This document shows, piece after piece, positions 58,077 through 59,144 of a stretch of DNA of 64,000 nucleotides. Position numbers and translations under genes: made by a program. The stretch is from a virus. The number at the start of each line of letters is the position of its first letter. Position 1 is the first letter of the stretch. The DNA lies in IMG/VR virus record IMGVR_UViG_3300035698_017726, positions 32,001-96,000 of that record, one strand, 5' to 3'. The notes beneath the pieces were generated by a model, which saw only the letters and a program-made list of their open reading frames with translations, searched no databases and was not told the DNA's origin.

Positions 58077-58129
58077 ATCTTTTTCTAACTAACCCTTGCC
58101 GGTCTTTCCGAACTGATTACCTTCATTAC

Positions 58130-58200
58130 ATGATGAATCGCTCCCGACGACGATGACAGCCCCACCCCGGAAAGCGGGGTCCACGAACACCGGGCCATAA
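58130..58200 (+). promoter_or_regulatory. Two coupled micro-ORFs (MMNRSRRR* and MTAPPRKAGSTNTGP*), putative leader peptides
   Basis: ATG 58130 to TGA 58156 overlaps ATG 58153 to TAA 58200; TTGCCG-16 nt-TACCTT lies just upstream. Confidence 0.4.
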
Positions 58201-58221
58201 GTACGTCCAGCGACTCACTAC

Positions 58222-58299
58222 ACTCCCTTAGCTCAGTCGGCAGAGCACCGAGGTTATCGACCTTGGGGGCCGCAGGTTCAATCCCTGTAGGGAGTACCA
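58222..58299 (+). ncRNA. tRNA-like RNA 1: 6-bp anticodon stem, AUC triplet, CCA end
   Basis: Acceptor ACTCCCT/AGGGAGT, normal D and T arms, CCGAGG-TTATCGA-CCTTGG. Confidence 0.8.
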
Positions 58300-58304
58300 T
58301 TTTT

Positions 58305-58410
58305 GCGTGGGTAGCTCAAGGAGGCGCCAGGCTTCGGGCCTGGATTGCCGTGGTAGAGCGCTCGACTGACCGTCGAGAGGTTGGGGGTTCGAACCCTTCC
58401 CCACGCACCA
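58305..58410 (+). ncRNA. tRNA-like RNA 2: GAC triplet, about 30-nt hairpin inserted in the D loop, CCA end
   Basis: Acceptor GCGTGGG/CCCACGC; CCAGGC-TTCGG-GCCTGG inside the D loop. Confidence 0.8.
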
Positions 58411-58416
58411 TTTTCT

Positions 58417-58501
58417 GCGCCGGTAGCTCAGTGGCTAGAGCACCAGTCGTCCTTCGGGGCTTGGCTGGAGGGCGGGGGTTCGAATCCTCCCCGGCGCACC
58501 A
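58417..58501 (+). ncRNA. tRNA-like RNA 3: anticodon loop replaced by a long stem with a cUUCGg tetraloop, CCA end
   Basis: Acceptor GCGCCGG/CCGGCGC; CCAGTC-GTCC-TTCG-GGGC-TT-GGCTGG. Confidence 0.8.
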
Positions 58502-58503
58502 TT

Positions 58504-58746
58504 TCAGAGAAGAACGAGTTTGCCCTCTTTCACGAGGTCCCGTTCTCGAATCTCTGCGAGCTCCAGCTGTACTCTCTTCCCGACCAGCGCCGTTTGTGTG
58601 CCTGCCAAATGGTCCTCCAGTCGCCTAATGTCGCCCTTCAGTCGCTCATTGGGCGCGATGAAGTCCGCTGCTCGGAGGCTCGTGAACTTGCTCCCCGGCA
58701 AAGGCGTTCTGAGGGACTCTACGGAAACGCTACCTATTTTCGCCAT
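58504..58746 (-). CDS. Small coiled-coil hypothetical protein
   Basis: GGAGG RBS; fills the gap exactly. Confidence 0.5.
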   Translation of the reverse strand: MAKIGSVSVESLRTPLPGSKFTSLRAADFIAPNERLKGDIRRLEDHLAGTQTALVGKRVQLELAEIRERDLVKEGKLVLL

Positions 58747-58766
58747 CAATCCTCCAGAGGCACTCT

Positions 58767-59144
58767 ATGGATAAGCTCTACATCGTAGTGAAGGAATCTC
58801 TCCACCCCGGTCTCAAGATTGCTCAGGCCTGTCATGGTCTTAGGCTCTTCGGCGACCGCTATCCCGACATCGATGCAAAGTGGTACGAGGAGTCCAACAA
58901 CCTCGTCATCCTCCAGGCCACTGACATCGGGGAGCTCGCTGACTCTCTCGAAGGTAGGGGCCTGAAGGTCTCCAGGTTCTTCGAACCCGACCTAAAGAAC
59001 GCGCTGACGGCTATCGCTGTTGAGCCTAGTGGCGGTAGGTATCTCTCCCACCTGCCCCTGGCATCCAACAAGATGGTCGTTCAGTCCAAGCCTGCTGTGC
59101 CTCTTTCGTTTTCGGGCAGAGTGGCTTGGCTTTTCGGAATGTAA
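58767..59144 (+). CDS. Peptidyl-tRNA hydrolase Pth2-like protein
   Basis: KLYIVV...L.PG...AQACH, W.....LVIL, F.EPD....TAIA..P...LS.LPL. Confidence 0.8.
   Translation: MDKLYIVVKESLHPGLKIAQACHGLRLFGDRYPDIDAKWYEESNNLVILQATDIGELADSLEGRGLKVSRFFEPDLKNALTAIAVEPSGGRYLSHLPLASNKMVVQSKPAVPLSFSGRVAWLFGM

Follow-up and report, generated by a model that had tools for sequence, protein, structure and literature searches.

Tandem tRNA look-alikes with rebuilt decoding ends recur beside genes for a Pth2-like protein in phages

The window analysed here is a 64,000-nt stretch of DNA (bases 32001-96000 of the 114,832-bp IMG/VR virus record IMGVR_UViG_3300035698_017726, for which CheckV estimates a completeness of 62%), and our subject is a short plus-strand unit within it, in which three tandem tRNA-like elements, E1, E2 and E3, are followed by a gene for a Pth2-like protein, Pth2L (Table 1). 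Because genes for a gpA-type large terminase and for a homologue of gyrase B are present in the record, its source is a large tailed phage. At the DNA level, megablast found no match of the region among 50,697 phage records. The Rfam search gave 46 tRNA-type matches in the record. The 43 conventional ones represent nearly every amino acid and all lie on the minus strand, as an earlier reading of the DNA from its letters alone (the original prediction) had described for the tRNA island; this now holds for 43 of 43 across the whole record, and E1, E2 and E3 are the sole plus-strand tRNA-type matches in its 114.8 kb.

Against the Rfam tRNA model RF00005, E1, E2 and E3 scored 50.4, 47.6 and 57.9 bits, all above the gathering score of 29 (E-values of 5e-10, 3e-9 and 4e-12 in a search of 411 nt), and our own tRNA covariance model gave 60.5, 57.9 and 66.3 bits. 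ARAGORN called two of the three elements, as 'tRNA-Asp(atc)' and 'tRNA-Lys(ctt)', and missed the middle one. The acceptor stems are ACUCCCU/AGGGAGU in E1, GCGUGGG/CCCACGC in E2 and GCGCCGG/CCGGCGC in E3, each with seven Watson-Crick pairs out of seven, and each is followed by A73 and an encoded CCA. The D stems are GCUC/GAGC with GG within the D loop, and the T loops are UUCAAUC, UUCGAAC and UUCGAAU, respectively. Spacers of TTTTT (E1/E2) and TTTTCT (E2/E3) separate the elements, U-rich as in the real tRNA arrays of the phage. The earlier description of three tandem plus-strand elements with short U-rich spacers, each with a perfect 7-bp acceptor stem, A73, CCA and a canonical T arm, can thus be read directly from the sequence.

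The decoding ends were different. The anticodon arm of E1 can be drawn as 5 bp with the 9-nt loop GUUAUCGAC or as 8 bp with an AUC triloop; the latter is its minimum-energy fold, and in the Rfam alignment either side of the anticodon stem is longer by one position. In E2, the D loop holds 35 extra bases in the Rfam alignment, including a hairpin (58327-58343) with a UUCG-containing loop, and the anticodon loop CUGACCG has C at position 37 and a possible C32-G38 pair, so that it can be closed to 6 bp with UGACC. In E3, 15 extra bases replace the anticodon loop, and the 26-nt arm, of about 10 bp with a UUCG cap, folds as ((((((((((....))))..)))))) and has no anticodon loop; we call such arms sealed. 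Minimum-energy folding closes the decoding ends of all three elements, and the normal 5-bp stem with a 7-nt loop (U33, purine at 37) was found in none of them. The Rfam insertions and the folds therefore agree that the anticodon or D arm is rebuilt, as had been proposed. Judged from their sequences, E1-E3 are predicted to retain all that is needed for production and handling like a tRNA, with the decoding end closed or distorted. The short loops still keep anticodon-like triplets, GAC in E2 and UCG in E3, each with A73, and charging of E2 and E3 by ValRS-like or ArgRS-like recognition is conceivable. One suggestion of the original prediction, a decoy for host anticodon nucleases, is unlikely, since such a decoy should keep the loop that is recognised and here that loop is missing.

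Comparison with relatives in other phages showed that these structures are under constraint. In six E1-type sequences (that of the window and five homologues), 98.4% of the cloverleaf cells are paired, compensatory changes occur in 14 of the 21 pairs, and none of 500 shuffles reached the observed values. In the acceptor stem, 24 sealed relatives show 98% pairing and three to six pair types per position; their proximal anticodon stem is 94% paired. The acceptor stems of these sealed relatives all differ, the caps are UUCG, UCCG, GNRA or short loops such as CGCAA, and the length of the sealed arm ranges from 6 to about 10 bp. A strict-pattern scan of IMG/VR for E3 orthologues gave 0 matches. The acceptor stem and T arm of E2 recur at L006:6525-6609 and at L247:1455-1539 (a 202-kb metagenome contig; L numbers denote loci), where a normal D loop is combined with a sealed anticodon arm, and L006:6670-6771 has a D-loop hairpin of the E2 kind. 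In this comparison, the E2-type body is conserved, and what varies is how it is disabled.

These data bear on the possibility that E1-E3 are decaying pseudo-tRNAs, the remains of a part of the tRNA island that was inverted or duplicated. We found no clear parent for them among the 43 tRNAs of the phage, the best pairwise identities being 57-66 matched bases, which speaks for this possibility. However, the stems covary, and the elements are therefore not decaying pseudogenes: homologues in distant phages hold the design through compensatory changes, all three elements have perfect 7-bp acceptors, intact D and T arms and CCA, and the changes are ordered insertions of stable hairpins instead of scattered mutations. 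Their adjacency to Pth2L genes also recurs across lineages, as described below. The original prediction had named decay as the outcome that would undo it; the compensatory changes and the recurrent adjacency contradict decay, and we regard it as hardly credible.

The protein gene of the unit was examined in several ways. The codon usage of Pth2L scores 0.41 bits per codon, while true genes score 0.33 (sd 0.14) and overlapping plus-strand open reading frames (ORFs) score about 0 or less; therefore, it is a real gene. Its stop codon lies 1 nt from a minus-strand tRNA-Gly gene. It had been called the only convincing plus-strand gene of the island, and by codon usage this stands among the ORFs near the unit, to which the comparison is limited. 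Pth2L alone matched the Pfam PTH2 family (PF01981) with 14 bits and E=0.06, which does not reach the cut-off of 23; some relatives pass it, with E-values down to 1.2e-12, and the family lies mostly below it. Pth2L matched phrog_1866 with E=1e-9, a family that PHROGs lists as 'unknown function', and a search of a library of 1.8 billion proteins gave 2,846 cluster representatives at E<=1e-3. The closest protein homologue, P0001, is 59% identical and is encoded on a 125-kb contig. A profile of 40 homologues matched solved Pth2 chains, the four best with E-values from 4.5e-9 (2zv3) to 5e-7 (1wn2), and 1xty with 1.7e-3. The AlphaFold2 model of Pth2L has a pLDDT of 93.4, and in Foldseek it superposes on every solved Pth2 with a probability of 1.00 and TM scores of 0.61-0.72 (2zv3, 3erj, 1rlk, 1xty, 1q7s and 1wn2). 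The Pth2-like identity given earlier is thus upheld by profile and fold, and its weak side is the protein's own Pfam match. In the family, Q20, H23, L49, P74 and D75 are invariant, the AQxxHA motif is retained and two loops are shortened compared with canonical Pth2. Taken with the predicted model, Pth2L is read as a divergent Pth2-fold protein whose active-site region has been remodelled. The family also occurs in a two-domain form (P0045, P0064, P0069, P0084, P0097, P0102, P0105, P0135 and P0137), with a conserved N-terminal domain of about 100-130 aa that shows the motifs LRExLK..VKxIR..RRxLHLALCYLxGTPY and received no family assignment.

Linkage between RNAs and protein was evaluated in 80 IMG/VR loci encoding Pth2L relatives, taken with 3-kb flanks. 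These loci were retrieved by two peptide patterns from a four-sequence alignment and do not sample the family at random. A covariance model trained on ordinary tRNAs was applied to them and to five other Pth2L-bearing loci, 85 sources in total, and 218 of the 221 tRNA-type matches lay on the strand of the protein. Anticodon arms were classified by regular expressions and curation, partly by eye, and after removal of duplicates 58 non-redundant loci had a match. Within 700 nt of the Pth2L gene there were 15 sealed elements, 36 stop-codon suppressors, 3 'AUG-loop' elements (described below) and 13 sense tRNAs; at 700-3000 nt the corresponding numbers were 2, 25, 0 and 57. Both sealed elements (Fisher, near versus far, p=1.3e-7) and suppressors (p=2e-6) were concentrated near the gene compared with sense tRNAs. 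In the reverse direction, UUCG-sealed arms were sought by pattern without reference to the protein, which gave 118 loci, about 10 of them with true tRNA look-alikes; the protein was in the locus for 4 of these, versus 0 of the 108 chance-match loci (p=3e-5).

Individual phages illustrate the arrangement. L006, a 416-kb phage whose protein is 49% identical, has about 40 normal tRNAs on the minus strand at 65-94 kb, and about 8 aberrant tRNA look-alikes on the plus strand at 209.6-210.6 kb, directly 5' of the Pth2-like gene. In L050, the closest IMG/VR relative (protein 52% identical), an E1-type element and a UUCG-sealed element are followed 24 nt on by the gene and then by a normal tRNA-Ile; L006 shares the order of E1-type element, UUCG-sealed element and gene. 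A sealed look-alike and a same-strand phrog_1866-type gene lie within about 1 kb of each other in the window, where E3 stops 266 nt ahead of the ORF, and in L050, L006, L103, L104, L124, L161, L211, L243, L247 and others. When 61 flanking ORFs of 10 cassettes were compared with Pfam, no family occurred in more than two (GIY-YIG); a conserved protein partner was therefore rejected, which leaves the RNAs and the hydrolase as the sole parts in common. Same-strand sealed or special tRNAs thus flank Pth2L genes in other phages as well, and the conserved linkage, together with the covarying stems, bears out the idea that rebuilt tRNA-like RNAs and a Pth2-like enzyme form a dedicated unit. The comparisons show that selection has kept the design, and its place next to the hydrolase gene, in many phage lineages. 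Two further sets of loci were noted. A separate family in L003-L049 (e.g., L003:2876-2947(-) and L004:5443-5513(-)), carried by about 25 of the 47 loci, has a covarying D-loop hairpin, GGGGGAU-UCG-UCUUCC and variants, and an anticodon loop of 8 nt, AACGAAAG, and its genes do not encode CCA; as a Pth2L-linked family it was rejected, since a Pth2-like gene is present in only 2 of the 47 loci. L047 (1259-1665(-) and 2667-2771(-)), a 26-kb phage contig, holds a GOLLD RNA (281.6 bits), a YrlA-like match that scores 39 bits, under its threshold, three aberrant tRNA look-alikes and a Pth2-like gene, all inside 5 kb.

The tightness of this linkage matters for a broader decoy model, in which the elements are sponges for host factors that act on tRNA bodies or 3' ends (CCA-end toxins, acceptor-stem nucleases or processing enzymes) and the hydrolase removes acyl adducts such as N-acetyl-aminoacyl groups. 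The presence of several copies in tandem hints at an effect of dosage, and UUCG or GNRA caps would resist cleavage in the anticodon loop. Passages of one study report that Pth counters the tRNA-acetylating toxin TacT in Mycobacterium tuberculosis (PMC9241777), and passages of another propose that phage PTH2 acts in tRNA-damage contexts (PMC7824862). A general decoy, however, would not need to be near the Pth2-like gene, and 15 of the 17 sealed elements lie within 700 nt of it; in addition, no recurring defence or counter-defence gene was found among the flanking ORFs of the 10 cassettes. Because the two-way adjacency is tight and a general decoy could sit anywhere in the island, we favour a partnership with the enzyme and consider the decoy model rather improbable.

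The protein family is tied to stop-codon suppressor tRNAs as strongly as to the sealed look-alikes. In L051-L125, Pth2-like genes adjoin same-strand suppressor tRNAs, amber (CUA) ones and a small number with UUA or UCA, at a distance that is often only 10-100 nt. Sealed look-alikes and amber-suppressor tRNAs even stand in one tandem array near the Pth2-like gene in L243:7700-7859 and L211:3210-3418, and they are therefore companions and not alternatives. In-frame TAG codons occur in several suppressor-linked phages, for example in the split Pth2L match of L051. Directly beside Pth2-like genes, L054:3307-3383 and L098:2858-2933 carry 8-nt anticodon loops, CCUCUAAU with the four-base anticodon UCUA and CUUUCAAU with UUCA, which would pair with UAGA and UGAA, respectively. 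A speculative explanation is that read-through may raise the load of peptidyl-tRNA. Full-text literature searches found no description of the suppressor link.

The E1-type elements of relatives raise a different question. Their loop reads NNUAAUGAN, or ACUGAUGUC in L006 (UAAUGA versus CUGAUGU), with an AUG inside. In L104, the loop is GUAAUGA, and its ATG (2959-2961) is the sole in-frame start before a conserved KLY motif, which starts directly after the CCA of the element. From the loop ATG at 2953 of L103, the frame leads to the ORF without a stop or another start in between. The loop ATG of L247 lies in the frame of a 311-codon open stretch, at the end of which is the Pth2-like domain. The loop ATG of L050 opens 47 codons through the sealed element, and the TGA of this frame overlaps the ATG of the gene (ATGA); in L124, a 7-codon ORF from the loop ATG has a TGA that overlaps an in-frame GTG; in L006, the frame stops 5 nt short of the gene's ATG. 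As far as these frames indicate, an AUG-loop element may be a translation start site shaped like a tRNA. The loop of the window's E1, GUUAUCGAC, fits the pattern xxUA--GAx of the relatives, and UC replaces AU, so that AUG becomes UCG. A four-base-codon gate in the window was considered and rejected: the E1 loop offers UAUC or AUCG, by hand no quadruplet joins the upstream frame to the Pth2L frame, and the gene's own start also contradicts it.

Such loops would be expected if the elements act in cis, that is, if they are part of the Pth2L messenger as a leader or punctuation, setting its ends through RNase P or RNase Z cleavage, or controlling its translation, with the E1-type loop presenting the start codon. 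The in-frame loop ATGs of L104, L103 and L247, the coupled starts of L050 and L124, the near-coupling in L006, and the fact that tRNA-type genes are often only 10-100 nt from the ORF all speak for this. In the window, however, the AUG position of E1 holds UCG, codon usage marks the frames through E1-E3 as non-coding, and the gene has its own AGAGG-N7-ATG start after a 265-nt spacer. Arrays of three to eight elements, and sealed elements that lie 3' of the gene in many phages, exceed the needs of punctuation, and the encoded A73-CCA and the conserved elbow point to free tRNA-like products. Because the elements come in tandem copies and may precede or follow the gene, mere messenger punctuation is disfavoured, and we consider action in cis to be unlikely, though deserving of serious attention. 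Given the change of AUG to UCG, the spacer and the gene's own start, the window's E1 is best read as the descendant of a start-codon-bearing, tRNA-shaped leader that has lost this role and is apparently still kept as a folded, CCA-ended RNA.

Upstream of the array, the motif (A/T)TGACAGC..ACCCCG-N5-CGGGG is common to the window and L050, 40-60 nt 5' of the first tRNA-like gene, and L103, L104 and L247 carry CATTGACCGTCAG and a GC hairpin at the corresponding place. Judging by its position, this element probably marks the 5' boundary or the promoter region of the unit. The spacer between E3 and Pth2L has a fold z-score of +0.7, and its open frames on both strands score from -0.10 to +0.05 bits per codon. 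A real gene in it was rejected, as its 81-aa (minus-strand) and 84-aa (plus-strand) ORFs have codon scores near 0 and Pfam and PHROG scans of the spacer ORFs gave no match.

Taken together, we believe, with a little more confidence than doubt, that a divergent Pth2-fold hydrolase and non-decoding tRNA-shaped RNAs that act via their acceptor end form a widespread phage cassette. In the window, a common transcript would start near 58153 and be processed like the tRNA arrays of the phage. E1-E3 would be excised and build up as stable, L-shaped molecules with the CCA end free. They would then act through this end together with the hydrolase and without decoding, either as dedicated acyl-carrying substrates of the enzyme or as RNAs that titrate it. 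We regard as improbable a bolder version, a self-contained and codon-independent tRNA system, in which chargeable sealed bodies would carry acyl or peptidyl groups outside decoding (e.g., at stalled or split ribosomes) and be recycled by the dedicated Pth2-derived hydrolase, whose translation in relatives would start at the loop AUG.

Several observations weigh against the cassette as we favour it. Canonical Pth2 uses two catalytic residues, a Lys in the GK motif and an Asp in the DAG motif. In the Pth2L family, the position of the GK-motif lysine is variable, and the canonical Asp aligns with Glu73, beside the invariant Pro74-Asp75. Hydrolysis of an ester at the 3' end of a tRNA would be the natural inference from the predicted fold, and because the lysine is not conserved and the Asp is replaced by Glu73, peptidyl-tRNA hydrolase activity is only assumed. 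The sealed RNAs lie 5' of the gene in some phages and 3' in others, and their number varies from 1 to 8, which fits co-expression and falls short of a physical or enzymatic partnership. The cassette as favoured gives no explanation for the equally strong link to suppressor tRNAs, and a scan with the sigma-70 consensus gave no promoter for the unit. Finally, in relatives an ORF runs through tRNA-like elements into the hydrolase gene; therefore, part of the array at least may act in cis.

The coordinates of the features are collected in Table 1. They include a fourth, degenerate tRNA-like element of the window, in addition to the three of the original prediction. This element has an abnormal anticodon region and a T loop off consensus, and it scored 27.2 bits with Rfam, under the gathering score, and 43.7 bits with our own covariance model.

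Table 1. Coordinates of the tRNA-like elements, the Pth2-like gene and associated features (positions without a prefix are those of the window).
Feature	Position	Strand	Description
Conserved upstream element	58153-58179	plus	ATGACA (TTGACA-like hexamer), then hairpin CCCCG-GAAAG-CGGGG
E1, tRNA-like RNA	58222-58299	plus	Rfam match 58222-58296; 19-nt anticodon arm
E2, tRNA-like RNA	58305-58410	plus	Rfam match 58305-58407; 38-nt D loop with inserted hairpin
E3, sealed tRNA look-alike	58417-58501	plus	Rfam match 58417-58498; UUCG-capped helix, arm 58443-58468
Spacer between E3 and the ORF	58502-58766	none	265 nt, without convincing coding signal or exceptional RNA structure
Pth2L	58767-59144	plus	125 aa, phrog_1866 family; own AGAGG-N7-ATG start
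Degenerate tRNA-like element	59931-60001	minus	adjoins tRNA-Met; acceptor GCGGCCG/CGGCCGC, U73, CCA
AUG-loop element	L103:2918-2995
AUG-loop element	L104:2924-3001
AUG-loop element	L247:1374-1451	minus
AUG-loop element	L050:2826-2903
AUG-loop element	L124:2925-2998
AUG-loop element	L006:7018-7095
Suppressor tRNA (example)	L057:3355-3424
Suppressor tRNA (example)	L058:3356-3432
Suppressor tRNA (example)	L113:2853-2927

tRNA look-alikes that are under selection and unable to read codons show that the tRNA body can have a function apart from decoding, and their tight, widespread association with a tRNA-ester hydrolase and with suppressor tRNAs hints at a layer of phage translation control that has gone unrecognised. 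If our view is true, the annotation of sealed genes as tRNA-Lys, tRNA-Asp, tRNA-Cys and so on should cease, the Pth2-like family that PHROGs leaves without a function would gain a concrete biochemical hypothesis, and the AUG-in-anticodon-loop leaders of relatives would be a new kind of translation start site. We could not find an earlier description of the sealed-tRNA/Pth2-like cassette in the literature: full-text searches returned none of anticodon-less tRNA look-alikes linked to phage Pth2, and the words 'phage' and 'viral' are absent from the available text of a review of non-canonical tRNAs (PMC7609411).

Compared with canonical tRNAs (RF00005), E1-E3 share the cloverleaf, the 7-bp acceptor, the D arm with GG, the UUCRANY T loop, the discriminator with CCA and the U-rich spacers. 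They differ in their abnormal decoding arms and in lying on the strand opposite to all 43 normal tRNAs. Intron-bearing tRNAs of the group I type were rejected, as the insertions are only 15 nt (E3) and 35 nt (the D loop of E2) and no Rfam intron family matched; archaeal bulge-helix-bulge motifs were not searched for. As for the protein, PTH2 genes have been described in jumbo phages, with a proposed role in recycling peptidyl-tRNA in ribosome rescue (passages of Iyer et al. 2021, PMC7824862). The archaeal- or eukaryote-type Pth2 fold and the large tRNA-rich phages of those passages resemble the present case, whereas the phrog_1866 family has a remodelled active-site region and lies mostly under the Pfam PTH2 cut-off. 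Linked non-decoding tRNA look-alikes are not mentioned in the passages of that paper on peptidyl-tRNA, Pth, tRNA-like and Y RNA; suppressor tRNAs were not searched for there.

Transfer-messenger RNA (tmRNA) with SmpB likewise presents a tRNA-shaped acceptor end without an anticodon and works outside normal decoding. One option of the original prediction was that E1-E3 are codon-independent peptide acceptors for ribosome rescue: charged RNAs would occupy a vacant A site or bind a split 50S-peptidyl-tRNA complex and receive the nascent chain, and the Pth2-like enzyme would strip the peptide. The acceptor end and the elbow are intact, the neighbour is a tRNA-ester hydrolase, and the short loops hold anticodon-like triplets with fitting discriminators, such as GAC with A73 in E2 and, in an AT-rich clade, CGCAA with U73, which we take to be a Cys identity set. 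Nevertheless, EF-Tu delivery normally requires codon recognition, and with sealed arms of such variable length a precise mimic of the codon-anticodon helix is unlikely. The pair at position 3:70 is U-A in E1 and G-C in E2 and E3, so the G3:U70 of tmRNA is not present; the elements also have no internal tag ORF, their D arm is complete and their anticodon arm is rod-like. No tmRNA was called by ARAGORN in the window, and Pfam scans of the 61 flanking ORFs of the 10 cassettes gave no neighbour that is SmpB-like or factor-like. We therefore rejected tmRNA as the identity of the elements, and ribosome rescue by them seems to us a poor prospect.

Other non-coding RNAs that resemble tRNAs include YrlA, mascRNA and 'species 1 and 2' of T4, the last being stable RNAs of the T4 tRNA cluster. 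YrlA and Y RNA-like molecules are, in the passages on them, tRNA-like non-coding RNAs, some of them phage-encoded beside tRNA genes, which are handled by tRNA-processing enzymes (PMC4201824). The elements scored 16.5 bits against YrlA (RF02553), versus a gathering score of 69 (E=0.98), and this identity was rejected. The ends of YrlA form a Ro-binding stem and not a free acceptor-CCA end, and no Ro/TROVE gene was found among the Pfam-scanned neighbours of the cassettes.

The thrS leader is a tRNA-like translational operator that mimics the anticodon arm of tRNA-Thr. In a similar way, the E1 relatives of L103, L104, L247, L050 and L124 would hold or gate, within the messenger, the start codon of a tRNA-handling enzyme. 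There are clear differences: the relatives mimic the whole cloverleaf and place the AUG in the 'anticodon loop', and the E1 of the window has no AUG.

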